64,000 bases of DNA, taken from contig OZ024740.1 in the NCBI GenBank assembly GCA_964016885.1, positions 140,740,001 through 140,804,000 of the forward strand, given 5' to 3'. Source of the stretch: Eledone cirrhosa (lineage: Eukaryota). Below, piece after piece: positions 4,801 to 49,406 of this stretch; position 1 is the stretch's first letter; each line of letters begins with the position of its first letter. Under the pieces are notes generated by a model that was given only the letters and a program-made list of their open reading frames with translations, was not told where the DNA came from and made no database searches. Position numbers and translations under genes: made by a program.

Positions 4801-4923
4801 TTTGGGGGGGTGGGAAAGGTGGGGAGAGGGGGGAGATGGGGTTGTGTTAGCCATCCGCGGCCGAAACAAAGAGGCATGTTCGCATTCTCGTCCTCGAGGT
4901 GTGTTTGTCTTTAACTTTGGCAT
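1813..4923 (-). pseudogene. RTE-A APE-RT ORF, two frameshifts and an in-frame 60-bp deletion in the PHD finger
   Basis: ORF pieces 4741-4983, 4200-4877, 1813-4203; GITGK|CPQ versus [21 protein letters not shown] in other copies. Confidence 0.9.
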
Positions 4924-7340: not shown

Positions 7341-7377
7341 ATATAAGATCAAAAGATGGTTAAAGGAGTTCCATGTA

Positions 7378-7444
7378 TTTTATTATGCGCATTTCAAAAA
7401 CAAACATCATCATGCAATAATATTTGTGTTTTCATCAGATAAAA
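7378..7444 (-). ncRNA. Type I hammerhead ribozyme
   Basis: TTTTAT-CTGATGA-long stem II-GAAA-TGCGCA-TA-ATAAAA. Confidence 0.85.
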
Positions 7445-8737
7445 CAGGAGAACATGATATGAAGGCTAAAAAACACTTGTGGATAGTGCAGTTTTAAATC
7501 AACATATGAAAAGTGGTTTTAGATTGATGTGTGATATTGGGAAAAATATTTTATTTAGAGAGGGGGGGGGGTTGGAAAGGATGAAAAAGGGGAGGAGATG
7601 AGAGGGAGAGATGGGTGATAGAGAGAAAGAGATAGTTTTTATAACTGAGAGGAGATATATTGTTTTACATAGAGAGGTTGAAAACCGTTGGAAGATAATG
7701 TATAAATTAAAAAAATTTGAAAATTAACGAAAGGAGGATATGTGCGAGGAAAAAGTATTTTATTTAGGGGGGGGGGGGTGGAAAGGATGAAAAAAGGGGG
7801 AGGAGATGAGAGTGAAGGTGGAGAGGGAGAGATGTGTGATAGAGAGAAAGAGATAGTTTTTATAACTGAGAGAAAGATATATTGTTTTACATAGAGAGGT
7901 TGAGAACCGTTGGAAGATAATGTATAAATTAAAGGAATTTGAAACTTAACGAAGGGAATTTATGTATGAAGATAGAGAGAAGAAATAATAATTGTGGATG
8001 AATATTCTAACGTCAAAAAAGGGTATGTTGATAAGTATTGTGGCAATTTCAAAATTAACGAAGAGAAAAATTATTAAGGTTTGTGTGTAGAAGGATTTGA
8101 GAAAAATAATGTGAAGTTAAAGTTTGTATATTGGAGGAATTGATAATATATGCGAATAAAGAGTTAATATGTATTAAGAATGAGTTCGTTGATGGGGAGA
8201 AAAAAATAATAAATTAAGGATGAAATTGAGATTAAAAAGATTTATGATAGAGAGAAAAAAATAATGATTGCGGATGAATATTCTAACGTCAAAAAAAAAA
8301 ATGTATATGTTATGAAGGATTTTACAAGGTGAAGATAGAATGAGGGTAATGAGTAAACAAGTATTATAGAGTGTATAATGCCCTTTAAAGTATGGTAGGA
8401 AGATGGGTATATTTTAAAGAGGTGTATGTATATGTGCCTTTGAGAAAAGATTCTAAATTAATAAAGAATTGAATATTAACTGTATACTTTGTGAAAAGTT
8501 CTATGGAATTTATGCAGGCAGATAGAAAACAAATCTGTACGTCTATTTATTATAGAATCTAGGTTAGAGATAATGGTAAATTTTTCATTTAGGCAGAGAT
8601 TACAGATTTTAGATAGAGAGCTGTTCAAGTATGAGGATGCAGAAGAAACCTTCTTCCAAAAGATGGTATATTTAATGTTTTTGTCTTTTAAGGACCATAT
8701 GAGTTCTGAGAGAGCAGTGTTGGTTCTTTTAAGTTTG

Positions 8738-8804
8738 TTTTATCTGATGAAAACACAAATATTATTGCATGATGATGTTTGTTTTTGAAATGCGCATAAT
8801 AAAA
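8738..8804 (+). ncRNA. Type I hammerhead ribozyme (inverted copy)
   Basis: Same motif as 7378-7444, on + strand. Confidence 0.85.
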
Positions 8805-8933
8805 TACATGGAACTCCTTTAACCATCTTTTGATCTTATATTATGTATACTCCAGTCCTACAAACTGTAGAGTGCTTCTTATCCGATATCTGCATTGCTT
8901 TATTGTACTACAATAAAACTCACCTCCTACATT

Positions 8934-9974
<1,041 letters not shown>

Positions 9975-10086
9975 AGGCTTAGCTCTGTTTCTCGACCGTT
10001 ATATCGCGTGACTATCTCCCCCTCCGCCTTTTGGGATTCTTTCTCACGTCGTGTAGACGCGTTCTTGAGACTAGTAAAATGAGGTA

Positions 10087-10174
10087 TCCTCTTGATAAGT
10101 CGGCAGACCTCGCAAGGACGCTATATCTTTGGTATATTGTTTTTGTTTATGCCACGAAACTACGTAGTCGAGGA
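10087..10174 (+). ncRNA. Type I hammerhead, U3-A8 core
   Basis: TCCTC-TTGATAA-GT(C)GGCA...TGCCAC-GAAA-CTACGTAG-TC-GAGGA. Confidence 0.85.
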
Positions 10175-10677
10175 ATTTAGGAACAGTTTAGGTATGATAC
10201 ATTTTATTACTAATTATATCTAAATGTTTCTTCTCTCTTCATAATGTATTTTTAACTCTGATACTGGTTCAGTCTGGTTCAAACTGAATTGGTCTGTCCC
10301 AGTCATTCATTGAGCAACATCGGTGAAGTTGGCACCCTTAACTCACAGTTGGGTGCGGATGCATTCATGTATATATGTGTGTGTCCGCATGTATCTGTGT
10401 GTTTCTAAATGTATTAATAACTCCCTCTGGTCGAGCAATCTTTGAAGTGTGGGGACAACTGGAAAGCTTCCATTACTCATACTTCTCGCCTTCTTCACTA
10501 CCTCTTCTACGGCCTCGATATGAATACCCCCTCCGCCTCCGTGGTATTTTTTTCGTGGTTATAAGAGGCTTAGCTCTGTTTCTCGACCGTTATATCGCGT
10601 GACTATCTCCCCCTCCGCCTTTTGGGATTCTTTCTCACGTCGTGTAGACGCGTTCTTGAGACTAGTAAAATGAGGTA

Positions 10678-10765
10678 TCCTCTTGATAAGTCGGCAGACC
10701 TCGCAAGGACGCTATATCTTTGGTATATTGTTTTTGTTTATGCCACGAAACTACGTAGTCGAGGA
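10678..10765 (+). ncRNA. Type I hammerhead, U3-A8 core (copy 2)
   Basis: Same sequence as 10087-10174, offset 591. Confidence 0.85.
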
Positions 10766-11026
10766 ATTTAGGAACAGTTTAGGTATGATACATTTTATTA
10801 CTAATTATATCTAAATGTTTCTTCTCTCTTCATAATGTATTTTTAACTCTGATACTGGTTCAGTCTGGTTCAAACTGAATTGGTCTGTCCCAGTCATTCA
10901 TTGAGCAACATCGGTGAAGTTGGCACCCTTAACTCACAGTTGGGTGCGGATGCATTCATGTATATATGTGTGTGTCCGCATGTATCTGTGTGTTTCTAAA
11001 TGTATATATATATATATGTATATATG

Positions 11027-18321: not shown

Positions 18322-19748
18322 TCATCATCATCATCATCATCATCATCACCGTTTTACGTCCGTTCTTCCATGCTAGCATGGGTTAGACTGGTTGTCCTGT
18401 TGTGGGCAGTGTCTGGTCGGCTGACCATGCCTTTCTCATACAGGAACTGATCTGGCTTGATTTCTACAGCTGGATGCCCTTCCTAACACCAACCTCATTT
18501 ACAGTGAGTGCTGGGTGTTTTTTCGTGGCGCCTACACGTCCACTTTACAGTGTGGGCTGGGTGCTTTTTTGCCGTGGCACCTCCACGACCACCTTGCGGT
18601 GGGGTGTGTGGGGGCATATTGTCTATATGCTTCAGCTTGTACCCATGGGAGGTCGGGTACTCTGTATTACTGCGTGACGCCAGAAGTCACGGTCGTGTGT
18701 CATTGCCTTTGAGAGGTGTAATTGGGTAAGGTCGGCTTTTATCACCTCATCCCAGGTCATCTTGGGTCTCCCCACTCCGCGGCTTCCATCAACTTCTAGT
18801 GCTCTGCACCTTTTTATGCAGCTGTCATCCTTCATACACATCACATGTCCATACTAGCGCAACCGCCTCTCCTGCACAAAGCATATGATTCCTCTTATGC
18901 TCAGTCTCTCTCAATTCATTTATGCTTTGTCGTTCATGTATATTACTGTTACACATCCATCGGAGCATGCAGGCTTCGTTTCTCTCTAATCTACATAAGT
19001 CTTCCACCTTCAGCACCCAGGTCTCACTACCATGCAACATTGCTGTTCGGATACACGCATCATACAGTCTGTCTTTCATTCTGAGGGAGAAGCCTTTTGC
19101 AGCTAGCAGTGGTAGCAGTTCCCTAAACTTCTTCCATCCCGTTCTTACCCTAGTTATTGTACTTTCTGAACACCCACCTCCGCTGCTAATTCGGTCACCT
19201 AGGTAGCAGAAGCTGTCTACTGTTTCTACAGAGCCCTCCCAGAGATTGGTGGTACTTGTTTCTTGTGGCTGTTTGCTGCTTGCTGTCTCAGCACAGCTGC
19301 TGCATGTGAAGCCTACATTCTTAATTAAGCTTCCTGAGATCCCGCTACATCTCTTGTGTACCCATTGTTTGCATTTGAGGCAGAGAATGGAGTTCCTACC
19401 TACACCTTTCCTACATACTGAGCAAGGCCATTTCCCTGAGGGGATCTGGGTTCTGTTTTCTCGTCTACTTACAAGGACCTTAGTCTTTGTCATGTTGACT
19501 TTGAGACCCTTTCTTTCTAGTCCCTGCTTCCAAGTTTGGAATTTCTTCTCTAGTTCTACCATAGATTCAGCTATGAGTGCGAGGTCATCAGCATACAGGA
19601 GTTCCCATGGGCATCCGGTCTTAAACTCCTCCGTTATTGCCTGCAGGACTATGATGAACAGGAGGGGGCTAAGAACAGAGCCCTGGTGGACCCCAACCTG
19701 TACGCTAAATTCTTCGCTATATTCATTGCTAATCCTAACTTTGCTGAC
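18322..19748 (-). mobile_element. RTE family B, 5'-truncated
   Basis: RT C-terminal half, distinct tail (CTAACCCATGCTAGCATGGAAGAACGGACGTAAAACGG(TGA)n). Confidence 0.93.
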
Positions 19749-19756
19749 TATATATA

Positions 19757-21268
19757 GCCATGTATAAAGAAACAGTCAGCAAGGTTAGAATTAACTGTAT
19801 ATATATAGCCATGTATAAAGAAACAGTCAGCAAGGTTAGAATTAACAACGAATATAGTGAAGAGTTTAGTATAAAAGTTGGTGTTCATCAGGGCTCCGTT
19901 CTTAGCCCCCTACTATTTATTATTGCCCTTCAGGCTATAACAGTGGAGTTAAAGAGCGGCTGCCCATGGGAACTCCTATACGCAGATGATCTAACGCTCA
20001 TAGCTGAATCAATGGCTGAACAAGAGAAGAAATTCCAAACATGGAAGCATGGCCAAGAATCAAAAGGCCTTAAAATTAACCTGTCTAAGACTAAAGTTCT
20101 AGTTTGTAGGAAGGAAAATAGGGCACCGGTCCCATCCGGGAAATGGCCATGCTCAGTGTGTACGAAAGGAGTAGGTAGAAACTCCATTTTATGTCCCAAA
20201 TGCAAAGTATGGGTGCATAAAAGATGTAGTGGGATCACAGGTAAGCTAACTAAGAACATAGATTTTATATGTGGCTGGTGCTCTGGTGCAATATGTAGCA
20301 GCAAGTGCCCAAGAATATTAGCTCATTCCATTGCACAGATGCTTCTATAGAAATAGTGGACACCTTCCGTTACTTGGGCGACAAAATCAGCAGTGGTGGA
20401 GGGTGCTCTGAAAGTACAGTAGCTAAAGTCAGAACTGGATGGAAAAAGTTCAGAGAGCTTATACCACTATTAGCTGCTAAAGGGTTCTCTCTAAAAATGA
20501 AAGGCAGGCTGTATGATGCCTGCATACGAACAGCAATGTTACATGGCAGTGAGACCTGGGCATTGTGTGCAGAGGATATACGCAGACTGGAGAGGAACGA
20601 AGCTTGCATGCTCCGCTGGATGTGTAATAGTAATATACGTGAACGGCAAAGCATAAACGAATTAAGAGAAAAATTAGAAATAAGAAGGATCAGATGTTGT
20701 TTACTCGAGAGAAGACTACGTTGGTATGGTCACGTGATGCGCATGAAAGATGACAGCTGTATAAAAAAGTGCAGGGCAATAAAAATAGATGGTAGCCACG
20801 GAGTAGGCAGACCCAGAAAAACCTGGGACGACTTGATAAATTCCGACCTCAGAGACTTACACCACTCCAAGACAATGTCGCTGGACCGAGACCTTTGGCG
20901 CTACACAGCCATACAGAAGACCCGCCTTGCCTAAGTACAAAGCGAAACCTACAGTCAGTAGGCACTTCTAACAAAAATACACCCCGTCCCACTACCCCCA
21001 CCCCATCCACACCACCCCTTTCAATGTAAAGTTATGTTGGTACCACAACATCCAGGCCGAAACAAATGAGGTCATGTAGGTCATGTATATATATATATCA
21101 TCATCACCACACTGTAAACGTGGTTGGTGTTAGGAAGGGCATCCAGCCGTAGAAAACCCACCAGACAGTCCTATACGAGCAGGACAACCAATCTTGCCTC
21201 AAGTGGGAAAACTCCCGTCCAAACCCATGCAAGCGTGGAAGATGGACGTTAAACGATGATGATGATGA
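19757..21268 (+). mobile_element. RTE-A, 5'-truncated, frameshifted
   Basis: ORFs 19760-20350 and 20305-20934; 3'UTR partly rearranged. Confidence 0.93.
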
Positions 21269-21632: not shown

Positions 21633-24600
21633 ACCATAATACATACTCTAATTTAACACCAACACAACCACCAATAACTCAAACAAGGAATCCACAAATC
21701 TGCCGTTTTTCCCTGCGAGACAGATTGTGTTTAGACCGGGATTGTCCCTTTACCCATCTCCCGGGGACCCGTCGGATAAATGAAAATAAAATTAAAAATA
21801 AAAGCAAAAACAAAAACCATAACCTACATAAAAATAACCACTACCACAGTCACCAACAGTCTTCTAAACAGGATACTTCTTCCTCTTTTTTAGCCATAAT
21901 GAATCTGGCAAAAGAACTGGAAAAAAACATTCGAGCTATCACCCAGCACCACCCTCCACTATCACCCCACTGCACAAACTCCCATTGCTGCCATTAACAA
22001 ACAAACAAATTAACAACACACCAAAACAATTAAAACCATCCACTCTCGCCTCTACATTTTTGCTTAACGCCCAAGGCATCAGCCCTTCCACCAATACTCA
22101 AAAATGGAAGATCAAATTCCTGGAGGACTAGATTGATGTCCATCCAAACCACATCCCTTTCTTCGTCCTCACTGAAACCCATCTCAGTAACCTCCACTTG
22201 GAAGCCGAGGTGAAAGTGAAAAATTTCAAAGCCATCCGTGCTGATCGCGCTGGCAGAAGAAAGGGCGGAACTGCCATTTATGTCCATAATTCTTTCTCAA
22301 CAGAGGCTATGAACATATTCACTAATGGATACTGTGAGGCAGTCACTGTATTCAGTCAAACCAACAACCTATTAGTGGTTGGGCTCTATAGGCCACCCCA
22401 AACGCCTGTACCATGCTTCAAGGAATGCCTCAACAGCATAAAGTGTTTCATCCAAGAGTGTCACCCTGACAACATCTTAATGATGGGGGACTTCAACCTC
22501 CCCGGAGTTGACTGGTCCACAAACACCCTGCCACCAGGTTCTTCTGCCTCAACCTCTGACAGGGAAGCTGTGGAATCGCTTCTTGACTTCATGGATGATT
22601 TCTTCCTATCCCAACTAGTGCTCGAACCAACGAGGTGCCACAAAAACGTCCTAGACTTAATTTTCAGCAATCACACTGACAATATCCACAATATTGCAGT
22701 GGAGAAAACTCTACTCTCTGATCATGACATGGTTCTCTGTGATCTGAGATTCCACCGTCCAATATACAAACCCAATGTCATCTCTCCTGTCCATCCGTTT
22801 GACGCTATGGATTTCCACAATGCAAACTGGGAAGCGATCAGTCATGATCTTGCACATGTCGACTGGTCCTTCACGCACACTCATACACCCACTAACATCA
22901 AAAAGTCCTGGCAGACATTTGTGGACACTGTTACAAACATATGTGCTAAACACACCCCATTAAGAACTATAAACAAATCTAAGAGCAGAATCCCTAGAAA
23001 TAGAAAAACGCTCATCAGAAAAATTAAGAGAACGAACAAAAAAATCAACAAGCTGAAATACTGTCAGCAGCAACACATCAACTTGACTGCCATTTCATCA
23101 CTAGAGATTAAAAAACATAACCTCCAAAACAACATAATGTCCCTCATCAACAATCAGAGAAGAGCTGAAGAGGCCTGGGCCATTGAGAAGATCAAACTCA
23201 ATCCCAAAGTGTTCTTTTCATTTGCAAAAAAACACAAAATCACTGGCTCTACTGTTGGCCCTCTAATTGATGAAAATGGCACTCTTCAAGACAATGCTAA
23301 AACCATGGGTGAGATACTGCAGAAACAATACTGCTCTGTTTTCAGCAATCCTGATATGGCCGATCTGGGCTGTATCGGCGATGTTACTCCCCATTACACC
23401 TTATCGGACATAACGTTTGGCGCCCCTGATGTCTTGGTGGCAATAAAGGAAATCAAGCATAATTCAGCAGTAGGTCCCGATAGGTTCCCTGCTTGTGTCT
23501 TGAAGGCGTGTCAACACCAACTTGCTTCTCCTCTTGCCAATCTGTGGCGGAACTCACTGGATGCTGGATATGTGCCAGAAAACCTTCTATCCCAGTCTGT
23601 TGTCCCAGTTTTCAAAAAGGGAAACAAATCCCTTGCCGTGAATTACCGTCCAATCTCACTCACCTCTCATATCATTAAGGTATTTGAGCGAGTGGTGAGA
23701 TCGCGAATGACCCACTTCCTTGAGAGTAACAATATGCTGAACTCCAACCAGCATGGATTCCGTAATGGAAGGGATTGCCTGACGCAACTACTGCATCACT
23801 TTGATGACATTTTGAGAGCCTTGGGAGAGGGTTCCAACACTGATGTTATCTACCTTGATTTCAGCAAGGCCTTTGACAGGGTTGATCATAACATTCTACT
23901 GAGAAAGCTGTCCAATATTGGTGTCACTGGAAAGCTGCTGCAGTGGATCAAGAGCTTCCTGTCAAACAGAACCCAACATGTTGTAGTTGAGGGAGTCAAA
24001 TCAAGCCCAGCCAAAGTCAGTAGTGGAGTCCCACAAGGCACTGTGTTGGGCCCACTTCTCTTCATCATCTATATTAATGACATCACTGACATCATCAAAC
24101 ACAGCAACATTAAAATTTTCGCTGATGATTCCAAGCTCCAAAAGGTCATCAATGGCGTGGATGACCGGATAAGCCTTCAGTCAGACCTACTGGCTGTTAC
24201 CCAATGGGCAGAAAAGAACAACATGTTACTGAACGAAGACAAATTCGAACTGATCCACTTTGGAAAAGAGGATGCTCTGAAACTCCCGTACTCCCTTCCC
24301 TCCGGAGAAACTCTCGTGGCATCTAACAGCATCAGAGACTTGGGAGTAACCGTGGACAGCAACATAAGCTGGACCACGCATATAAGCAGCAAAGTTGACA
24401 TGGCCCGCAGAATGTGTTCCTGGATCCTCAGAACCTTCCAGTCGAGAGATTCCCGCACCATTATCCTTCTCTTCTCTACTTTCGCCTGACCACACCTTGA
24501 ATACTGTTGTCCACTGTGGTCTCCCCACACGAAACAAAGTATCATGAAACTTGAAGCTCCTCAAAGGGCAATCACGAAAAAGATAGATGGCATGTCAGAC

Positions 24601-25081
24601 CTTGACTACTGGGGTCGATTGGAAAACCTGAAACTTTACTCACTCCAACGTCGCTGTGAGCGTTATATTATCTGCATGATGTGGAAAATGTTCCATCATC
24701 ACTGCCCAAATGATGTTGGCATCGCCTTCAAGATACACCCAAGGCTTGGGCCCCGTGCTATCCGTCCCATTCAAAAATCTAAATCGCAACTCATAACAAC
24801 AATACGGCACAATTATTTCACCTCAATCGGCCCTGCTCTCTTCAACATCACACCAGGACACGTCAAAACAGAAACTGACCACACAAAATTCAAGAAGTCT
24901 TTGGACAAATTCCTCCAAGTAATCCCGGACAAACCACCCACACCCGGATATGTCTCCGCAAACAGTAATTCTCTTCTCGAATGGGCCATGGTGCCCAAAT
25001 CCTGAATTGAAAGACTTCGCCAGGTGGTGCTATTAAGTTAGACATGGCCTCGGCCAATACTGGCCAAAACATTTCAAAGTT
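21633..25081 (+). mobile_element. CR1-group LINE (ORF1 end + ORF2), near complete
   Basis: ORF1 CCCH finger; APE (TETHL, YRPP, GDFNLP, SDH), RT (DFSKAFD, GVPQG, FADD); 3' end runs into (TA)n. Confidence 0.9.
22050..25005 (+). pseudogene. CR1-group ORF2 with two premature stops
   Basis: TAG near 22129; TGA at 24487-24489 is CGA in the paralog at ~30910. Confidence 0.85.
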
Positions 25082-25278: not shown

Positions 25279-29034
<3,756 letters not shown>

Positions 29035-30968: not shown

Positions 30969-31657
30969 TATTGATTTATTATTTTCTAGATCGTACAGGC
31001 AGACCTTATGTTGTTGAATTAAGATTTTTCACTCTAGCGATCTTAGTCAATTGCAACTATAACATGTAAATGTTCATCAAATATTAATTTATACTGCTCA
31101 GAAGCGATTCCTAGAGCTGAAATGATTGTAAATGACCTCTTTGAGTCTAAACTCTAAGCTATTTATCACTGCTCCCCCAGGTGAGCTGAATTTTGTAATC
31201 CCATATAAACGGCTGTTATTTCTAGCACTATGTGTGGGACGTTAGAGGACTGGAATAAGCCGTGTGCAAAACCTTGTGTATTTTCGCTACGCTAACCAGA
31301 CCTTAGATATTTTTCTGAGGTAGAGTTATTTTATTTTTATCTGGGTACCTATTGATAAACACAGAAAAAGTTGATTAACTCACTGCTAATTAGTTAATTA
31401 TTTTACTATTATACCATCCTTTGTGAAACATGTTTGAAGTTTGAAGTTCTGACCGATCTGCGGAAAAAGTTTGTATTTTGAATTTTAAACGTGTCTAGGT
31501 ACCAAGGCTTTTTGCCCATATGAGTCTGTGAGTATTGATTTATTATTTTCTAGATTGTACAGGCAGACCTTATGTTGTTGAATTAAGATTTTTCACTCTA
31601 GCAATCTTAGTCAATTGCAACTATAACATGTAAATGTTCATCAAATATTAATTTATA
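30969..31657 (+). mobile_element. Non-coding hammerhead element, 564-bp unit with 125-bp terminal redundancy
   Basis: Direct repeats 30969-31093 and 31533-31657; (TA)n flanks. Confidence 0.7.
31348..31439 (+). ncRNA. Hammerhead, U3-A8 core, decayed stem I
   Basis: TTGATAA-ACACAG..CTTTGT-GAAA-CATG-TT. Confidence 0.55.
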
Positions 31658-31727
31658 TATATATATATATATATATGTATATGTGTATATATATGTATAT
31701 ATATGTGTATATATATATATATATATA

Positions 31728-32432
31728 TCTGATTCATCTGAATTATTGAGCCCTCTGCCGCTCATATCGAATTTCGTTTATCGTGAACTCGTGCGCCGAT
31801 TTTTCGATACTCGATCTTTCTAATATATTTAGCTCTGGACATAGCTATCCACCAGTTAATTTTATTGCTCATTTTTTGTCGATTCTATTGAGTGATGAAT
31901 AGCTTTTGTTTTATTTTAACATGTCTATTGAGCACTCTAATTCGATATGTGTATTTCCACATTCACTCGAATTGTTTTCGCGGATATAGGGGTCATCTCC
32001 CTTGTCTAATGCCATGTGCGTTTTTCACTGGTAGTTGGCTCCTCTGCCGCCAGGAAAAAACTCGTTGATAACGTAAACCTCCGTTCCACTTGCTCTAGTA
32101 GGCTTTTATATTTATATGTGAGCTGATAGAGTACAGTCTAAGGATTTACAGAAACCCATGAAGCTAGATTTAACACCTGTCTAGTGGGTCCGGGTATGAT
32201 TTTACATTCATTTTAATTATTGACGTATTGTTTTATTGATATTTTTTATCTGTTTGGCCCGAATCTTCCTTTATCGATTTTAAATCGTATGGTTGATTGT
32301 AGACTTGTTCTATATGTGACGGTATTTTAACGATAGTTATAGCTCTGATTCATCTGAATTATTGAGCCCTCTGCCGCTCATATCGAGTTTCGTTTATCGT
32401 GAACTCGTGCGCCGATTTTTCGATACTCGATC

Positions 32433-32444
<12 letters not shown>
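31728..32444 (+). mobile_element. Non-coding hammerhead element, 616-bp unit with 101-bp terminal redundancy
   Basis: Direct repeats 31728-31828 and 32344-32444; (TA)n flanks. Confidence 0.72.
32060..32195 (+). ncRNA. Type I hammerhead, U3-A8 core, hairpin stem III
   Basis: ACTCG-TTGATAA-GTAAACCT..AGGATTTAC-GAAA-CCCA..CTAGA..TCTAG-TGGG-TC-CGGGT. Confidence 0.8.
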
Positions 32445-32476
<32 letters not shown>

Positions 32477-32481
32477 ATATA

Positions 32482-34311
32482 TCATCATCATCATCATCAC
32501 TGTTTTACGTCCGTTCTTCCACGCTAGCATGGGTTAGACGGGTTGTCCTGTTGTGGGCAGTGTCTGGTCGGCTGACCATGCCTTGCTCATACAGGAACTG
32601 ATCTGGCTTGATTTCTACAGCTGGATGCCCTTCCTAACACCAACCTCATTTACAGTGAGTGCTGGGTGCTTTTTCGTGGCGCCTACACGTCCACTTTACA
32701 GTGTGGGCTGGGTGCTTTTTTGCCGTGGCACCTCCACGGCCACCTTGCGGTGGGGGGGGGGGCATATTGTTTATATGCTTCAGCATGTACCCATGGGAGG
32801 TCGGGTACCCTGTATTACTGCGTGATGCCAGAAGTCACGGTCGTGTGTCATTGACTTTGAGAGGTGTAGTTGGGTAAGGTCGGCTTTTATCACCTCATCC
32901 CAAGTCATCTTGGGTCTCCCCACTCCGCGGTTTCCATCAACTTCTAGTGCTCTGCACCTTTTTATGCAGCTGTCATCCTTCATACGCATCACATGTCCAT
33001 ACCAGCGTAACCGCCTCTCCTGCACGCAGCATTTGATTCCTCTTATGCTCAGTCTCTCTCTCAATTCCTTTATGCTTTGTCGTTCACGTATATTACTGTT
33101 ACACATCCATCAGAGCATGCAGGCTTCGTTTCTCTCTAATCTACGTAAGTCTTCCACCTTCAGCGCCCAGGTCTCACTACCATGCAACATCGCTGTTCGG
33201 ATACACGCATCATACAGTCTGCCTTTCATTCTGAGGGAGAAGCCTTTTGCAGCTAGCAGTGGTAGTAGTTCCCTAAACTTCTTCCATCCCGTTCTTACCC
33301 TAGTTATTGTACTTTCTGAGCACCCACCTCCGTTGCTAATTCGGTCACCTAGGTAGCAGAAGCTGTCTACTGTTTCTACAGGGCCCTCCCAGAGATTGGT
33401 GGTACTTGTTTCCTGTGGCTGTTTGCTTGCTGTTTCAGCACAGCTGCTGCATGTGAATCCTACATTCTTAATTAAGCTTCCTGAGATCCCGCTACATCTC
33501 TTGTGTACCCATTGTTTGCATTTGGGGCAGAGAATGGAGTTCCTACCTACACCTTTCCTACATACTGAGCAAGGCCATTTCCCTGAGGGGATCTGGGTTC
33601 TGTTTTCTCGTCTACTTACAAGGACCTTAGTCTTTGTCATGTTGACTTTGAGGCCCTTTCTCTCTAGTCCCTGCTTCCAGGTTTGGAATTTATTCTCTAG
33701 TTCTACCATAGATTCAGCTATGAGTGCGAGGTCATCAGCATACAGGAGTTCCCATGGGCATCCGGTCTTAAACTCCTCCGTTATTGCCTGCAGGACTATG
33801 ATGAACAGGAGAGGGCTAAGAACAGAGCCCTGGTGGACCCCAACCTGTACGCTAAATTCCTCGCTATACTCATTGCCAATCCTAACTTTGCTGACTGCTC
33901 CCCTATACATGGCTTGTACCGCTTTCACAAGCCATTCATCTACTCCTAGTTTTCTAAGAGCCCACCAGATTACTGCACGTGGAACTCTGTCAAAGGCTTT
34001 CTCAAGGTCGACAAATGCCAAGTAGAGTGGCTTACTTTTAGCTAGGTACTTTTCCTGTAATTGCCTCACAAGGAAGAGGGCATCAGTGGTGCCTTTCCCT
34101 GGTACAAACCCAAATTGCATCTCGTCTATATTCACCCGGTCCCTAATCAGCTGTGCTATAACTCTTTCTGTTACTTTCATGACCTGGTCCATCAACTTTA
34201 TACCTCTATAGTTTCCTCTATCTAGTGCATCGCCTTTACCTTTGTAGCAGTTGACAATGATGCTACTGCACCAATCTTTTGGTATGGCCCCCTCTAGTAT
34301 TACCTGGTTAA
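32482..34311 (-). mobile_element. RTE family B, 5'-truncated
   Basis: RT ORF 33110-34195 (stop at 33110), C-terminus, B-type tail. Confidence 0.93.
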
Positions 34312-35330
<1,019 letters not shown>

Positions 35331-36060: not shown

Positions 36061-36336
36061 TAATAATAATGTCCGTTTACAATTGTTTCGCTACTCCATA
36101 TAATATTTCTGGATCAGATGACTATATATCATAATTGATCTGGTTCAGTTGAAAATAATTAACATATTTAAAGAACAGAGCGGCTCATGGAACTTCAAAG
36201 GAATATAAATTAAAATAATGAGAGAATATATAATGTTCCATATATTGGTTTTTCACTATGCTGCCTTGGTTGCATCAGTTGTCAGCCATAATCAAGCAGT
36301 ATTCATCTGTCGAGGCTGCATTGTGTGAGATCTGCC

Positions 36337-36531
36337 TACGGCTAAGCTCAAGCCGTTTTGACGGCTAATTCTGGACAAATTTAGTCCAGAATATATATAT
36401 ATATATAGGAACAAGTAGGACCCCGACGACTAAGCTCGAGCTGTTTCATCATCAAATTCTGGGCTAATTTAGTCCAGAATTAGCCGTCGAAACGGCTTGA
36501 GCTTAGCCGTCGGGGTCCTACCCGTTCCTAT
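36337..36531. mobile_element. Foldback fragments of the 25279-25712 family
   Basis: Imperfect palindrome 36407-36531 plus half copy 36337-36392. Confidence 0.7.
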
Positions 36532-37174: not shown

Positions 37175-40100
37175 ATCATCATCATCATCGTTTAACGTCC
37201 GTATTCCACGCTTGCATGGGTTTGGATGGGAGTTTTCCCACTTGAGGCAAGAGTGGTTGTCTTGCTCGCATAGGACTGTCTGGCGGGTTTTCTACGGCTG
37301 GATGCCCTTTCTAACAGCAACCACATTTACAGTGTGGAACTGGGAGGCTTTTACCGTGTTACCTACACGGCCACATTACAGCATGGACTGTGTGTTTTTT
37401 TTGTCGTGACACCTAGGCGACCTCATTTGTTTCGGCCTGGATGTTGTGGTACCAACATAACTTTACATTGAAAGGGGTGGTGTGGATGGGGTGGGGGTAG
37501 TGGGACGGGGTGTATTTTGTTAGAGGTGCCTACTGACTGTAGTAGGTTTTACTTTGTATTTAGGTAAGGCGGGTCTTCTCTATTACTGAGTACCGCCAAA
37601 GATCTTGGTCCAGTGACATTGTCTTGGAGAGGTGTAAGTGTGTGAGGTCGGAATTTATCAAGTCGTCCCAGGTTTTTCTGGGTCTGCCTACTCCGTGGCT
37701 ACCGTCTATTTTTATTGCCCTGCACTTTTTTTATACAGCTGTCGTCTTTCATGCGCATCACGTGACCATACCAACGTAGCCTTCTCTCGAGTAAACAACA
37801 TCTGATCCCTCTTATTTCTAATTTTTCCCTTAGTTCGTTAAAGCTTTGCCGTTCACCTATATTACTATTACACATCCAGCGGAGCATGCAAGCTGCGTTC
37901 CTCTCTAGTCTGCGTATATCCTCTGCACACAATGCCCAGGTCTCACTGCCATGCAACATTGCTGTTCGTATGCAGGCATCATACAGCCTGCCTTTCATTT
38001 TTAGGGAGAACCCTTTAGCGGCTAATAGTGGTATAAGCTCTCTGAACTTTTTCCATCCAGTTCTGATTCTAGCTACTGTACTTTTAGAGCACCCTCCCCT
38101 ACTGCTGATTTTGTCACCCAGGTAACGGAAGGTGTCCACTCCACTATTTCTATAGAACCATCTGTGCAATTGAAAGAGCTAGTATTTTGTGGGCACTTGC
38201 TGCTACTTATTGTACCAGAGCACCGGCCAAATGTAAAATCTATGTTCTTAGTTAGCTTACCTGTGATCCCACTACATCTTTTATGCACCCATACTTTGCA
38301 TTTGGGACATAAAATGGAGTTTCTACCTACGCCTTTCCTACACACTGAGCATGGCCATTTCCCGGATGGGACCGGCGCCCTATTTTCCTTCCTACAAACT
38401 AGAACTTTAGTCTTAGCCAGGTTAATTTTAAGGCCTTTTGATTCTAGGCCGTGCTTCCATGTTTGGAATTTCTTCTCTAGTTCGGCCATTGATTCAGCTA
38501 TGAGCGTTAGATCATCTGCGTATAGGAGTTCCCATGGGCAGCCGGTCTTGAACTCCACTGTTATAGCCTGAAGGGCAATAATAAATAGTAGGGGGCTAAG
38601 AACGGAGCCCTGATGAACACCAACCTTTACGCTAAACTCTTCACTATATTCGTTGTTAATTCTAACCTTGCTGACTGTTTCTTTATACATGGCTTGTATA
38701 GCTCTCACAAGCCATTCATCAACACCTAGTTTTCTAAGCGCCCACCAGATAATGGAGCGGGGACTCTGTCGAAGGCTTTCTCCAAGTCGACAAAAGCTAA
38801 GTATAGGGGTTTACTTTTAGCTAGGTACTTCTCCTGTAGTTGTCGTACAATGAAAAGAGCGTCTGTGGTACTTTTGCCTGACACAAACCCGAACTGCATT
38901 TCATCTAGATCAATTCTCTCTCTGATTAGTTGCGCCATTACTTTTTCCGTGACCTTCATGACCTGGTCGATTAATTTAATGCCTCTATAGTTACTCCTAT
39001 CTAGGGCATCTCTTTTACCCTTGTAACAGTTAATAATGATGCTGCTATGCCAGTCCTTTGGAACAACCCCATTCTGTATGACTTGGTTTACTATCCGGGT
39101 GACCATGGTGTGTCCCACCGTTCCAGAGGCTTTCAGCATCTCAGCAACTATTTCCGAAGGCCCAGCCGCCTTACCTGTCTTCATAACTTTGATTGCCTTA
39201 CTTATTATACTACCTTCGACTAACACTGCTGGTCCCTCTATTGGGTCGATGTGGGGGAGACTGTCTTTCTCCCATTTATTCTCCTCATTTAGTAGCCTTT
39301 CGTAGTGACACTTCCAAGCTACCTTCTTATCAGCGTCAGTGATGGCAAGTACACCATCATCATTAAGGACACACTTCTCTCCGACAATATCACGGTTTTC
39401 CTTGACACATTGCCTAGCAATCCTGAACACCTCACGTTTTTGGTCCTCGCGTTGTAGAACATGCTTGAACTTTCTTTCCTCTGCTTCCCTTCTTGCGGAG
39501 TACACTTGTCTCCTAGCTTCCCTCCTGGCCACTTGATAGTCTTCTCTACTTCCCCCATCCTGCCATACTTTCCAAGCCTGCTTTTTGGCCTTAATTGACT
39601 CCTCCACCTTACTGTTCCACAACCATGTTACTCTCCTCCTGCCTATAGGCCTGCTCCAGCCACAGACTTCGTCTGCCGCCATCAGCAGGTTTGCTTTCAG
39701 GAATTCCCACTGTTCCTCTATATTGTACGACTCTAAATGCTCTTCCTTACTGTCGAAAGCATCAAGTAATATGCTTTTAAATTTATTTCTGGCTGTGGGG
39801 TCCTTTAGCTTCCATATTTTTCTCCTGAGGATAGTCCTCTTCTGCTGTCGAGTACGTCTCATCCTGACTATGAGGTTGCTAATTATGAGTCTATGTTGGG
39901 AGGTGCATTCTTCATGGGGGAGGGATTTAGTGTTTACAACAGACACTCTGTCACGTCTTCTGGTAAGGATATAGTCTACCTGGCTGGTATGTTCCCCTGA
40001 TCTGTAGGTGATCAAGTGATTGTCTCGTTTTTTGAAGTTAGTGTTACAGATAGTTAGGTTATTTGCGTCACAGAATTCCAGGATTCTGGAGCCTTCCTCA

Positions 40101-40920
40101 TTTCTAGTACCAAACCCATAGCCTCCGTGGATTCCATCATAGCCGTCACAATGTTGTCCAACGTGACCATTTAGGTCGTCAGCAATAATTATATAGTCGC
40201 TGTCGGTTATTTGGGAGGTAGTGAGCATCAGTGTCTCATAGAAACTGTCTTTTATAGTGCAAGGCAGTCCGGATTGGGGCGCGTAAGCAGATGTTACCGT
40301 CACAGTAGTTCTATTTAGAACAAGTCTTATTTTAATTATTCTGTCATTCACTCTATTTACGTCTATTATCTTATCCACCCATTTTTCTGCTAACATGATT
40401 CCTACCCCACCCAGCCCATTGTCATTTCCCACCCAGAAAAGCTTATAGTATCGTTTTTTACCCACAATGAATCTAGCAGACCTGCCCCTCCACCTGGTCT
40501 CTTGGATACAGCAAACATCAACCTCCTTATGTTCAAGCATTTCTACAACCTCGTTAGAGCGGCCTTTTAAGGTGCCTACATTCATGGTACCAACTCTGAA
40601 GTTTTGGATTGCGTTTGGTGGGTGGGGCGCAGGGAGGGGTGAGGTGGATGGGGTTGGAGTTATGTTGGCCATCTGCGACCGCAACAAAGAGGAGGGGGCC
40701 TTGCCCTTTCGTCCGGCAGCATGAGGTGAATTTGTCGTTATCTTTGGCATTGTCTTCTGGTGTCCAGATTCTTCAGACTATCCAGAAATTCCTTAGTCCA
40801 TCCATCATATCGAAAAGCAACCAGAAGTGATAGCATAGGCCGTTGACTTGTGATTGGTCCAAATAATAAGGTGGAGAGTGGGGGCGGGAGGGACGGGTAT
40901 GGGTAGTTTGCGAGGAGCAG
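37175..40920 (-). mobile_element. RTE-A, near full-length copy 3 (frameshifted)
   Basis: ORFs 38726-40750, 38073-38708, 37699-38169; start MPK at 40750. Confidence 0.95.

Positions 40921-43141: not shown

Positions 43142-43195
<54 letters not shown>
42080..43195. repeat. (TA)n array with amplified TGTTAATGTATTAAA word, then (TA)n/(TATG)
   Basis: Direct reading. Confidence 0.95.
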
Positions 43196-43199
<4 letters not shown>

Positions 43200-44862
43200 G
43201 GAGGTGAGTTTTATTGTAGTACAATAAAGCAATGCAGATATCGGATAAGAAGCACTCTACATTTGTAGGACTGGAGTATACATAATATATAAGATCAAAA
43301 GATGGTTAAAAGAGTTCCATGTATTTTATTATGCGCATTTCAAAAACAAATATATATGTAATACAATAAATAACCTCTCCAATCCAATAAATAACTTCTC
43401 CAATCCAATTCCTTCTATAGATAACACTAGGTCACTCGTTAATAACTCTGCTAATCTCTCTAATCACAATTGCAATTGCCCTGTTAAAAATAAATGTCCT
43501 CTCAACAACCATTGTCTTGAAAAAAACTTAATCTACGAATGTAAAGTTATAACTGACACCAATTCCTTCACCTATTTTGGCTCCACTTCCACCTCCTTTA
43601 AAGCTCGTCTTTATAATCATCATTCGTCTTTTAAATACCAACTTAAAAGAACCAACACGGCACTCTCAGAACTCATATGATCCTTGAAAGACAAAAATAT
43701 TAAATATAACATCTCTTGGAAAAAGGTTTCTTCTGCTTCTCCATACTTGAACAGTTCTCTATCCAAGACTTGCAATCTCTGTTTAAATGAAAAATTTACC
43801 ATTATATCTAATTTAGATTCTATAATAAATAGACGCACTGACTTGTTTTCTCTCTGCTTGCATAAATTCCACAGAACATTCCTTAAAGTATACAGCTAAT
43901 ATCTAATACTTTATCAATTTAAAATCCTTTTCTCAAAGGCACATATATATATATATACTTCTTTAAAAATATACCCATCCTTCTACCTTATTTCAAAGTT
44001 ATTTATTATACATTATATAATACTAGTTACTCATTCTATATCACTCCTATTTATCACTTCCCTTTCTTCCTTTTCCTTTTAATTTCTAACCCCTAATCTG
44101 TATCTTTTCTCATTGTGCCTAACATAGAAACAATTATTACACAGTACAATATATTCTTACTTTATATCACCTTGAAAAAATCCTTCGTAAACATAAATAT
44201 TTTTTTGACGTTAGATTATTCATCATCAATTCATTATTTTTTCTCCCTTTCATGCTCATCTAATATATCCTTACTTACATTACTATTGTTTTTTTAATAA
44301 TACATATCAACATTTTCTTTCCATCGCACATATTATTAAACCCTTAAATATTATTCTCAATACATATTAACAATTTCTTTTCATCGCACATATTATTAAA
44401 CCCTTCAATATACAAACCTTAACTTAACATTATTTTTCTCTTCGTTAATTTTCAAATTCTTTTAATTTATATATTATCTTCCAACGGTTTTTCAACCTCT
44501 CTATGTAAAACAATATATTTTTCTCAGTTATAAAAGTTATCTCTCTCTCTCTATCACCCATCTCTCCTCCTATCTCATCCTTCCTCATTATACTCCTCCT
44601 CCTCCACTTTTTACTCTCATCTCCTCCGCTTTTTCACCCCCCCCCCCTCAAATTTTTTTTTCAAAATATCACACATCAATCTAAAACTACTTTTCATATG
44701 TTGATTTAAAACTGCACTATTCACAAGTGTTTTTAAACCTTCATATCATGTCTTCCTATTTTATCTGATGAAAACACAAATGTTATTGCATGATGATATT
44801 TGTTTTGGAAATGTGCATAATAAAATACATGGAACTGTTTTAACCATCTTTTGATCTTATAT
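43196..44862 (+). mobile_element. Naiad-type PLE 3' fragment (same family as 7339-8933)
   Basis: NCNCPVKNKCPLNNHC..LIY..YFG..CNLC..CLHK at ~43440-43899 with TGG>TGA at 43678; inverted tail+end at 43196-43352. Confidence 0.88.
44759..44825 (+). ncRNA. Type I hammerhead
   Basis: TTTTAT-CTGATGA..GAAA-TGTGCA-TA-ATAAAA. Confidence 0.8.
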
Positions 44863-44869
44863 ATATATA

Positions 44870-45120
<251 letters not shown>

Positions 45121-45136
45121 ATATATATATATATAT

Positions 45137-45327
45137 ATAGGAACAAGTAAGACCCCGACGGCTGAGCTCAAGCCGTTTCGACGGCTAATTCTGTACAGAA
45201 TTAGCCGTCGAAACGGCTTGAGCTCAGCCGTCGGGGTCTTACTTGTTCCTATTACCCACTCTACTACCCTAAGTATTGAGTACTTTGGTGCGTTATGGTC
45301 CACCTGGTTCCTTACCACATTTCCTTC

Positions 45328-46093: not shown

Positions 46094-46187
<94 letters not shown>

Positions 46188-46231
46188 TGGCTCCCTCGGT
46201 TGACTGAGTACTCTCTTGACTTATATTCATC

Positions 46232-48339
46232 ATGCAGAAACAACATCTGAATATTTCTACAAAGAATATACCCGTACCAAGCAGGAAAACATACCTAAAA
46301 CTCCTGATACAGAAAACTGACGTGTTCATTAAAAGGTTGCGTTGGAGTGCCTTTTATTCCGATAATCCGCGAAAAGCAGACAACAAACAGGATACATTTG
46401 GGTTTAAAACCTATAATAACCCTCCGTGTAACCCAGCATTGCTACCCTTCGAAAATGATGTCTTGTTTCGGAATCGGAGTAATTCCTTCCAGAAGGACCT
46501 GAAGAATACAATTCGTTCTATTAAGGATTCTAATGCCGTGCACGTCCATTCCGACAAAACTGGCAACCTATATCAAGTGGAGCGCAGTACTTACCATCAA
46601 CTACTACATAATGCTGTAACTAAGGATTACCGTAAAACTAATCGGTGCGTCATCAATGAAATCAACGATGCTGGGTTTAAAATCACCTCTGATCTCAACA
46701 TCCTGGACCGGACCGAACCTCTGGACCCTATTTCTTCCCACTTTACCCTGAAGGATCACAAATCCAATTTTCCGAACAACCCCTCTATTCGGCTTATTAA
46801 CCCTACGAAGTCCAATTTAGGTAGACTTAGTAAAAGGATTCTTGATAGAATTATACCTGAAATTAGAAGTTTGGCCCCTCTTGCACTGTGGAACAATTCT
46901 TTCGCGGTGATTGATTGGTTCAACGGCATATGCAACAAGGAACATTGCCGTTTATCCAATTCGACATCAATAATTACTACTCCTCCATCACTTTACCACT
47001 TCTCCTTAGAGCTATCAATTTCGCAAAAACACTCACAGTGGTTAAGGATTTCGAAGTTGATGTCATCCTCAATGCCCGTAAGTCAGTGATTAATTTTGAC
47101 GACTCTATTTGGATTAAAAATTCCAATAGTACCCCATTCGACGTGAGTATGGGCCCCGGCGATTCTGCGGAGGTTACTGATCTTATCGGCCTTTTCCTTC
47201 TTTTCTCTATCAAGGACGAATTCCCCAATGCGGGCGGTGGTTTGTACCGTGATGATGGTCTTTTGACCATGACTAAGTGCGGCCCTCGTGCTTGCGACAG
47301 GTTCAGGAAAGAACTCACAGCCTTCTTTAAAGGCTTCAACCTCTCTATACAGGTTGAGGCCAACCTCTTGGTCGTTAATTACCTCGACGTCACCCTCAAT
47401 TTATCGAATGGCTTGTATTACCCGTATAGAAAGCCGAATGATACGCTTAATTACATAAGTAAGCATTCCAACCATCCTGCCAGCATAACCAAGAACCTGG
47501 TAAGAAACGTTTCGTTGAGGCTTTCCCGTCTATCTACTAACGAGCATATTTTCAACGACCATTTCACATATTACAATGAAGCTCTTGCTCGGAGTGGATT
47601 TGTAGATAAGGTAGCATATACAGAGTACGAAAATAGACCTAGAAGAAATAGATCCCGACGTATTATATGGTATAACCCAACATATAATAAGGAGGTGGCC
47701 ACACCATTAGCTAAGACCTTTCTATCCCTTATTACGAAGCATTTTCCCCCTACACATAAATATAGTAAAATTTTTAATAGAAATACTATTAAAATTTCTT
47801 ACTCTACGACTCCTAACCTTGCACATAACATCACAGCTTCAAATTTAGCCAAACTACCTAGCCATAGGAACACGTGCAACCCTGTAGTTAGTACTAATTG
47901 TAATTGTAGGAATCGGGTTGATTGCCCCCTATCCGGGAAATGCCTCTCTAGTAACATTGTCTACAAATGTAAGGTTGAAACATCCACGTCTCGTAGGGCC
48001 TACATAGAGTTAACCGCCAATAGATTCAAGCAGTGTCTTTACATGCATGCCCATTCTTTTCGTTACCCTCTAAGAAGGAATATGACGTCACTTTCAGCTT
48101 ATATCTGGAGTCTAAAAGACAACCACACCCAATATAAGTTACACTGGGAGATCCTAGCTAGGGCTAGATCGTATAACGGAAATAAAAGACCATGTGACCT
48201 CTGCGCCGCTGAGGCCCTGGAAATACTCTACGCCACAGACCACATCTTAAACAAAAAATCTGAGGCAATTTCGGCTTGTAAACATAAATTGCTCAAAACT
48301 TTCCTGTATTACAGCCCCACATTATACCCTAACGGATAG
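46232..48339 (+). pseudogene. PLE RT + GIY-YIG ORF, one frameshift near 46945
   Basis: Overlapping ORFs 46232-47089 and 46915-48339; YIE instead of YIG. Confidence 0.85.
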
Positions 48340-48920
48340 TACGAACTATACGCGGATATTTTACGTCTTGATGTGGTAGCTAAGTATATGTTATGTTTAT
48401 ATCATTACTTATTTGCATAGGTAAGTATATATTACCTGTATGTTTTGTGAAGGTATGTATGCTTTCTCGTACGTATATTTGATTGTATATGTTATGGCGT
48501 ATATTTTTATATATTCTGGTACATATGCTTTTGGCTATGTGTATATGTGAGTTTTGCGTCTGTGTGAGTATGCGGGTTCGTACGTATGTAGGGTGTATGT
48601 ATATGTGTACTTCGTGTTTTGGTTGACGTACGTCTCCGAACATTTGTGTATTTACATGTAGGTATGTGTGTGCGCTTGTTATATACGTATTTATTTATTT
48701 ATATACGTTTATTTAATCATTTGTATCCACGCACACACACACACACACATATTTATATGTGCTTCTATTTGTATACCTATGGCGAGTGTTTTCGCGTATG
48801 CTTGTGTATGTACGTATATGGATGCGTGTATGTATTTATTTAATTTCAATTACCTCTGTATTTTATTTAATTTATTCTTAACTCTGAAGCGGAGAATCAT
48901 TCGGTTTCCTAGTTAGAATT

Positions 48921-49191
48921 TTAGTCTACGACTTCAGTTATACCATTTACGTGGTTTTGTTTTTGCGTGCAATTGTTCTCCATGATCCACATATGACGTA
49001 TTATCTTCGTTTTTTCCGTTCATTGCCAGAGAACGTCTCTATGAACCACCTAAGAGAATATTAGTCTACGACTTCTTTTATACCATAAACGTGGTTCTGT
49101 CTTTGTGTGTAATTGTTTTTCACCGCTCCAATTAATGACGTATTATATTCGTTTTTTCCTGTTCTTTGCCAGGGAACGTTTCCACGAACCA
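48921..49191 (+). repeat. Diverged 140-bp tandem duplication in PLE 3'UTR
   Basis: TTAGTCTACGACTTC at 48921 and 49061. Confidence 0.8.
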
Positions 49192-49406
49192 AAGTATCAT
49201 CTTCCTGTCTTCCTCCGGTTGCAACGTTTTTTGAAATATTCACTTCTGCGTTTACAGATTGACTTTGTTAGTTTCAGAAGACCCCGTTAAGGGTGAAAAC
49301 AGCGATTCTTTGCTTAAACTTTAATCTGTTATTTTAATAAATATATATATATGTATATATGTATATATATATGTATATATATATATGTATGTATATATAT
49401 ATATAT

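Follow-up and report, generated by a model that had tools for sequence, protein, structure and literature searches.

A 717-nt stretch of the window, the 64,000 nt of DNA analysed here, consists of a 616-nt unit followed by a 101-bp repeat of its beginning, and is flanked on both sides by (TA)n that blurs both boundaries of the insertion (Table 1). The two copies of the redundancy differ at a single position (31771/32387), so that the unit length and the terminal redundancy given in a preliminary description of this DNA were borne out. No ORF of at least 150 amino acids lies over the element, and neither simple polymerase III A and B box patterns nor a promoter were found in the unit. The stretch is one recent copy of a 616-nt non-coding repeat that is inserted at hundreds of sites in the genome.

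Table 1. Positions in the window of the insertion, its parts and the neighbouring Penelope-like copy
Feature	Positions	Strand	Remarks
Whole insertion, 1.16 units of the 616-nt non-coding retrozyme-type element	31728..32444	+	
One full unit, 616 nt	31728..32343	+	Equals the tandem period in the genome
Terminal redundancy, repeats 31728-31828	32344..32444	+	Covers most of the 107 nt from site A to site B (Penelope-type tail)
(TA)n target microsatellite, 5' side	31654..31728	.	
(TA)n target microsatellite, 3' side	32439..32468	.	
Type I hammerhead	32060..32195	+	Three stems; core U3-A9 at 32065-71
GUC, predicted cut after 32190	32188..32190	+	5' ends of the family accumulate in the next 28 nt
Start site B, fixed 3' end of nearly all copies	32441..32444	+	Internal copy at 31825-31828
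Hairpin after site B	31832..31938	+	GCTC 31832-35 pairs with GAGC of GAGCACTCT 31930-38
Start site A and its hairpin	32335..32372	+	Site at 32335; GCTC 32342-45 / GAGCCCTCT 32364-72
Frameshifted coding Hydra-clade Penelope-like copy, outside the insertion	46187..49345	+	Candidate kind of enzyme donor

A search of the 3.0-Gb assembly with the exact 3' junction of the element, a 24-nt half of the hammerhead and the junction of a sister subfamily gave 775, 1,767 and 738 occurrences, respectively, and none for the reversed control of each. The family is young. The analysis covered two sets of loci on one contig. The first comprised 99 of the 100 junctions at the head of the list, and the second 70 of the first 71 junctions of the sister subfamily, from which one near-duplicate locus was omitted. 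The insertions at the 99 loci range from 44 nt to 26.6 units in length, with a median of 720 nt, and (TA)n was seen at the 3' side in 86/89 and at the 5' side in 54/89.

Only the 5' end varies among the copies. A sample picked by its junction necessarily shows a fixed 3' end. Loci were therefore also selected by the hammerhead, and 18 of these 19 end at the same 3' site (14 with the exact junction and 4 others), the nineteenth ending in an assembly gap. The same 3' end was found at all 30 loci fetched with a 74%-identical diverged copy. With its 3' end fixed the element is not freely permuted, and free permutation of both ends was rejected. The earlier term "circularly permuted hammerhead element" thus stands for a hammerhead-bearing non-coding retroelement whose insertions cross the cut site (77/99), but not for free ends. 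The redundancy fits the interval that separates two start sites of reverse transcription, A and B. The 101 bp correspond roughly to the Penelope-type tail between these sites: the 5' end of the window copy lies 9 nt into the ~107-nt A-B interval and its 3' end lies at B, which accounts for the redundancy.

The 591- and 564-nt units of the window (9973-11005, 30969-31657) have no significant similarity to the 616-nt unit by BLAST, as had been noted before, and all three carry a TTGATAA core with a long stem II. A (G/A)CTC...GAGC hairpin lies directly past the 3' end of the 591- and 564-nt units, as in the 616-nt unit. The three look like one structural class.

The hammerhead and its conservation

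The hammerhead is built around the core TTGATAA. Stem I is formed by ACTCG (32060-64) and CGGGT (32191-95) with one U.G pair, and the base of stem II by GTAAACCT (32073-80) and AGGATTTAC (32141-49) with one bulged A. GAAA is placed at 32151-54, and stem III pairs ACCCA+CTAGA with TCTAG+TGGGT (32154-68/32180-89; 9-11 predicted pairs). Two features had been missed in the preliminary description: C32072 and A32150 remain unpaired between the core and stem II, as an offset 1x1 mismatch, and stem II is prolonged as a rod of ~78 nt. The type I core (Y3 U G A N R8 A9, G12 A A and N-U-H) is present around three helices, with a stem II that does not close directly on A9/G12.

The U3-A8 hammerhead with three stems and its GUC, as first described, agrees with the minimum-energy fold of the local stretch, which is the three-way hammerhead, with an energy z-score of only -1.2. 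A relaxed hammerhead descriptor matched the unit but none of 1500 dinucleotide-shuffled versions of it. Rfam gave no hammerhead match for a 201-nt stretch, nor among the 150 of 252 matches listed. In many relatives the hammerhead is not the minimum-energy fold even of the local stretch, and the minimum-energy fold of the whole unit does without stem I, the active fold lying 3.2 kcal/mol higher. This penalty might protect circles or might signal weak activity. Cleavage of the monomer by way of the stem III hairpin is predicted from the fold, which is locally favoured. At 32186-32195 (GGGUCCGGGU) the ACCC of stem III has two possible partners, each a GGGU; the predicted minimum of the whole circle has the shifted, inactive register, which might keep circles from being cut.

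Conservation was followed across 74-78 insertions, in which U3, U4, G5, A6, A9, G12, A13, A14, A15.1 and C17 are invariant, U16.1 being retained in 76/77. Core position N7 is free (T in 20, C in 29, G in 25), and position 8 is A in 64 and G in 10, so that the 3-8 pair is U-A or U.G. Among 22 diverged copies, G5 is retained in 21, and the C/A after A9 together with an invariant A before G12 is present in every row. The stems of these copies are 95% paired, against 26-47% in slid controls, and changes on both sides occur in 7 cells and 2 pairs of stems II and III (counts uncorrected for relatedness). As the 22 rows are related to each other, the shuffle count is not a probability. Another diverged relative adjoins young copies in the same (TA)n tract at two loci (L125, 4160-4745, and L109), with stem III altered on both sides.

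Start sites, shared hairpins and a candidate partner

An RNA hairpin, GCUC...GAGC(C/A)CUCU, follows each of the two start sites of the unit. The family of the Hydra-clade copy in the window has the same arrangement: GCTC pairs with GAGC, and GAGCCCTCT follows site A and GAGCACTCT follows site B, as in the 616-nt unit. The sequence GAGC(A/C)CTCT occurs twice, in the same order, in the 616-nt unit, which holds no others, and in the 3267-nt Hydra unit, and two occurrences never appeared in 3000 and 300 shuffles. A GCTC following Hydra end B, predicted before the search, was found at 278 places (other continuations not being counted). Twelve diverged copies yield a consensus fold that contains hairpins A and B, pairs with both sides changed being few.

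Because the two hairpins are common to the unit and the Hydra family, a second start site was predicted in the unit. The first pattern tried for 3' ends at site A gave 0 occurrences and a register four to six bases earlier gave 14, of which 13 belong to the family and one is unrelated. Eight of the 13 are two-armed, head-to-head copies, and in 8/8 the other outer end is site B. Their arms, both often longer than one unit, differ at 0-5 of 117-583 positions, some of these at the joint, a closeness that other insertions can equal. Site A is the 3' end of ~1% of the 616-nt copies. No inverted 5' arm was found at the 87 site-B loci with 300 nt of flank, and a tail-to-tail neighbour was seen once in 100 loci.

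In the coding Hydra family, 3' ends fall 14 times at A and 17 times at B (30 loci), and the window copy begins exactly at its own site B and ends at site A. This family is large and young (median nucleotide identity of 97.8% among the 14 top copies, ORFs of ~710 amino acids) and has a hammerhead-like core, CAGAAGA. Its clade, which is marked by an RWK-like motif, DKT, a CxCX5C linker, a GIY-YIG at the C-terminus and insertion in (TA)n, was assigned by motif, RWR and CxCX5C being present in 3/3 long ORFs and DKT in 2/3; Pfam returned no family for the ORFs of the window copy. Hydra-clade elements are described as inserting in (TA)n (PMC8557442), and for the anole Penelope enzyme a two-site start that corresponds to the genomic tail is reported from in vitro experiments (PMC11167929). 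Penelope-type copying of the 616-nt unit is very probable, and, judging from sequence, a Hydra-clade reverse transcriptase-endonuclease likely copies it in trans.

The start-site hairpins and the hammerhead common to the unit and the Hydra element would also suit a unit that belongs to a coding Penelope element as its pseudo-LTR or 3' UTR, the copies being 5'-truncated remains of that element, and Xenopus retrozymes are related to pseudo-LTRs according to a preprint (10.64898/2026.07.22.740005). The copies, however, run 5' into further units or into (TA)n, and no ORF is joined to the element in register in 100 loci (at least 250 amino acids) or in 70 sister loci (at least 150 amino acids, same strand), which speaks against the UTR of a coding Penelope-like element that the preliminary description had named as a refutation. 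The few Penelope ORFs upstream of copies are set apart from them by (TA)n and other repeats, and no alignment of the unit to the 3' UTR of the window Hydra copy was obtained. This reading is mostly refuted and highly improbable, and descent of the unit from such a repeat is likely. As a whole, the 717-nt stretch is probably to be explained as a young hammerhead-bearing non-LTR retrozyme insertion, likely copied in trans by Hydra-clade Penelope-like elements.

Five-prime ends, tandem arrays and the template

The 5' ends of the family are not evenly placed along the unit: 17/97 lie within 28 nt 3' of the predicted cut, against 4.6 expected (p = 7e-6). With TA weighting and any window the pile-up has p = 5e-5 (first 88 events), and in the independent set of the sister subfamily 12/70 5' ends fall in it, against 4.1 expected (p = 0.001). 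Only 1 of the 17 coincides exactly with the cut site, most lying 4-27 nt inside. The same site is crossed in 77/99 insertions, twice in 43 and ten or more times in 12, up to 26 units. Stops at the cut amount to 12/89 on the first pass and 5/259 on later passes (p = 8e-5; background 1.1-1.5%), the later-pass counts being possibly inflated by growth of the arrays at the DNA level; in the sister set, 2/6 second passes also stop near the cut. A mixed template population of cut linear monomers and circles would produce such a pile-up, and cleavage by the hammerhead in vivo is quite likely. Stalling of the enzyme on the hammerhead structure would give equal stops at every pass and is disfavoured as a cause. 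A further 8/97 5' ends lie at the base of hairpin A (unit positions 609-4), against 2.2 expected, in an interval chosen post hoc and with the window copy included.

Divergence is 0.14% within insertions and 3.8% between them (55 and 65 insertions, respectively), and 21 private substitutions were found in every pass of their own insertion. Arrays were studied in a set of 50 with ~357 units (35 junction-screened loci of at least 1,300 nt and 15 added by choice). Out of 88 within-array substitutions, 76 are confined to a single unit, and 12 are common to several but not all units, some of them in adjacent blocks, so that DNA-level duplication or template switching also occurs. On the RNA-sense strand T>C exceeds A>G (18 vs 2, p = 0.018), in one of six tests and with significance lost after correction; in the youngest arrays, which were picked as a subset post hoc, the lean is 15 vs 1 (p = 0.009). 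It might reflect misreading of U by the enzyme. An RNA-editing test for a single template gave no A>G excess, with 3/21 among the private shared changes. A contig from four of the seven sequencing runs listed, none of them recorded as RNA, wraps by 616 nt, a pattern that tandem DNA also gives. The array data favour one RNA unit read repeatedly, and a read-through multimer of a homogeneous parent would be compatible with them. A circular template is, on balance, rather likely.

Such a read-through multimer is the basis of another explanation, in which a long linear transcript of a tandem array is copied in Penelope fashion, the hammerhead being slow and no circle being formed. Homogeneous parent arrays would then give homogeneous daughters, and 27 of 2080 insertion pairs are indeed identical; in vitro, the anole element is reported to have used mainly unprocessed RNA as substrate (PMC11167929), 8/9 tested dimers of Xenopus retrozymes stayed uncleaved according to the preprint 10.64898/2026.07.22.740005, and the second-pass stops of the sister set point the same way. 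A constant chance of cutting would, however, give equal stops per pass, in conflict with the drop seen after the first one, and the 12 insertions with at least ten crossings of the site, the longest with 26 units, also argue against it. We consider this explanation unlikely.

Alternatively, one to two units would be retrotransposed and the long arrays would grow later by unequal crossing-over or slippage, in the manner of satellites. The 12 multi-unit substitutions, several of them in adjacent units, would fit such growth, as would two linked changes (L183, unit positions 188 and 264) present in units 1 and 3 of one array, and the older sister subfamily, in which 0/70 insertions have two full units, is compatible with a change of length at the DNA level. 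On the other side stand the 76 single-unit substitutions, the T>C lean on the RNA-sense strand and the two-armed insertions with both arms longer than one unit, and this reading does not explain how the cut site came to be crossed a first time. This makes later growth very unlikely as the source of the arrays, and repeated reading of one RNA unit is preferred. Variants in non-adjacent units were also observed in two arrays (L064, unit position 409, 5/13; L072, unit position 17, 5/14). Together with the linked changes of L183, these scattered variants could come from a damaged template base read in two ways, from a dimeric template or from exchange at the DNA level.

Proposed mechanism and relation to known elements

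A fixed start, a (TA)n target, variable truncation, near-identical head-to-tail units, shared hairpins and rare two-armed insertions are seen directly in the sequence. For the steps leading to them we infer transcription, cleavage, ligation, binding of the Hydra protein and repeated laps. Tandem 616-nt loci would be transcribed, the hammerhead would cut the transcript after the GUC, and some monomers would be ligated into circles, by a host ligase as proposed in PMC7229834. A Hydra-type enzyme would bind the GCUC/GAGC hairpin and nick (TA)n DNA, and would prime on AU-rich sequence immediately 5' of hairpin B. If the template is a cut linear RNA, the enzyme would run off after ~250 nt, as in about one insertion in eight; if it is a circle, the enzyme would lap repeatedly until it drops off, and the end of the cDNA would join (TA)n by short homology. 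A two-armed insertion would arise in ~1% of events, when site A is used as the start by a second enzyme working from the opposite DNA strand. In this scenario the window copy would represent one lap plus the tail. For one Penelope element tested, the ribozyme is reported as dispensable for insertion in vitro (PMC11167929). The complete proposal, namely a circular RNA of 616 nt whose hammerhead is oversized and of new structure, which parasitizes a Hydra-clade enzyme by mimicking its two start-site hairpins and is copied for up to 26 laps into (TA)n, the insertions recording the ribozyme cut and the lap-by-lap errors of the enzyme, is tentative and has slightly less in its favour than against it. 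If true, the hairpin would be a portable signal making any RNA circle a template for rolling-circle integration.

By its sequence features the unit belongs to the metazoan non-LTR retrozymes, as it shows dispersed tandem non-coding units with one type I hammerhead each and no attached coding region. Elements of this group, as portrayed by Cervera and de la Pena (2020, PMC7229834) and by Li, Clavereau and Pollet (2026, 10.64898/2026.07.22.740005), are likewise tandem and non-coding with one type I hammerhead per unit, and are also alike in a GC content below 50%, the lack of LTRs, dispersed arrays and Penelope elements in the same genome. The unit measures 616 nt, against 170-400 nt for the retrozyme RNAs studied in invertebrates and axolotl; the sizes of 51-972 bp given in the preprint mean that size alone is not new. 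Unlike the metazoan retrozymes as these sources present them, the family has an oversized hammerhead without Rfam match, fixed start sites, strict (TA)n targets and a motif in common with a named Penelope clade. According to a review of 2020 (PMC7761336), such repeats have no conserved motif that points to a partner, and a Penelope origin of retrozymes has already been argued in the preprint 10.64898/2026.07.22.740005.

The Hydra-clade elements described by Craig et al. (2021, PMC8557442) resemble the family in their (TA)n targets, 5' truncation and partial tandems, in an occasional inverted 5' arm, in a tail between two ends and in a hammerhead upstream of the tail; those of this genome also carry two start-site hairpins. 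The 616-nt unit differs from them in having no ORF, in the use of site A (~1%, whereas in the coding family A is used about equally to B) and in the build of the hammerhead. For Poseidon, a green anole element (Frangieh et al. 2024, PMC11167929), two internal RNA start sites whose interval forms the tail are reported, along with AT-rich targets and extension of both strands. Its start is an AC-rich stem-loop without homology to the target and its tail measures 30-40 nt, in contrast to the AU-rich start matching (TA)n and the tail of ~107 nt in the 616-nt unit, and in the account of Poseidon considered here no reads end at the cut, where the 5' ends of the 616-nt family accumulate.

The hammerhead itself is close to Penelope variants described by Cervera and de la Pena (2014, PMC4209133), with which it has in common the U3-A8 core (Schistosoma Cercyon), an extra base on the 5' side of stem II and a short stem I; a large stem III is found both in the unit and in fungal and protist Penelope forms, reported there as active as monomers. 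Unlike the variants seen in that source, it has a stem II rod of 75-82 nt and, before G12, a second extra base (A), and some copies have U3.G8. No earlier description of the extra base before G12 or of the rod was found in the literature searched. Since a hammerhead of this build has no Rfam match, such elements may be undercounted. In a squid genome, to judge from the part of PMC6962438 considered, hammerheads were only counted. The Chlamys non-autonomous elements such as MRC1 (PMC8557442) are also non-coding, multicopy and head-to-tail, target microsatellites and travel as passengers of a Penelope-like element; as described there, their sequence resembles that of the partners' 3' ends and most of them have no hammerhead, in which the 616-nt unit differs.

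The 616-nt family and its hairpin were not described in the literature searched, mainly open-access main texts. Three things are additional to the prior descriptions examined: the hairpins in common with the Hydra family, the start sites and the trace of the cut. For the return of animal retrozymes to the genome, a circular template and a Penelope enzyme have been proposed, without demonstration in the parts of the literature examined. With this family a candidate for the partner clade can be named, the recognition hairpin is defined, the start sites are exact, and both a target sequence and a genomic trace of the cut are available, which makes the model testable with one protein and one 616-nt RNA.

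Several other elements lie in the window. A short palindromic element flanked by TA is present at 45140-45327, 25573-25707 and 36335-36531, and also at two loci of the 616-nt family: in L062 it abuts the 616-nt element precisely at the predicted cut, and in L091 the junction lies at unit position 538. Remnants of another Penelope-type element, with a CTGATGA hammerhead, occupy 7346-8932 and 43195-44871, the first of them with inverted ends. Much of the window is made up of nested remnants of LINE-type reverse transcriptases (1813-4910, 18825-20934, 26467-28754, 32826-34486, 37699-40777 and 22132-25005), which we take to be RTE-like, with one presumably CR1-like.
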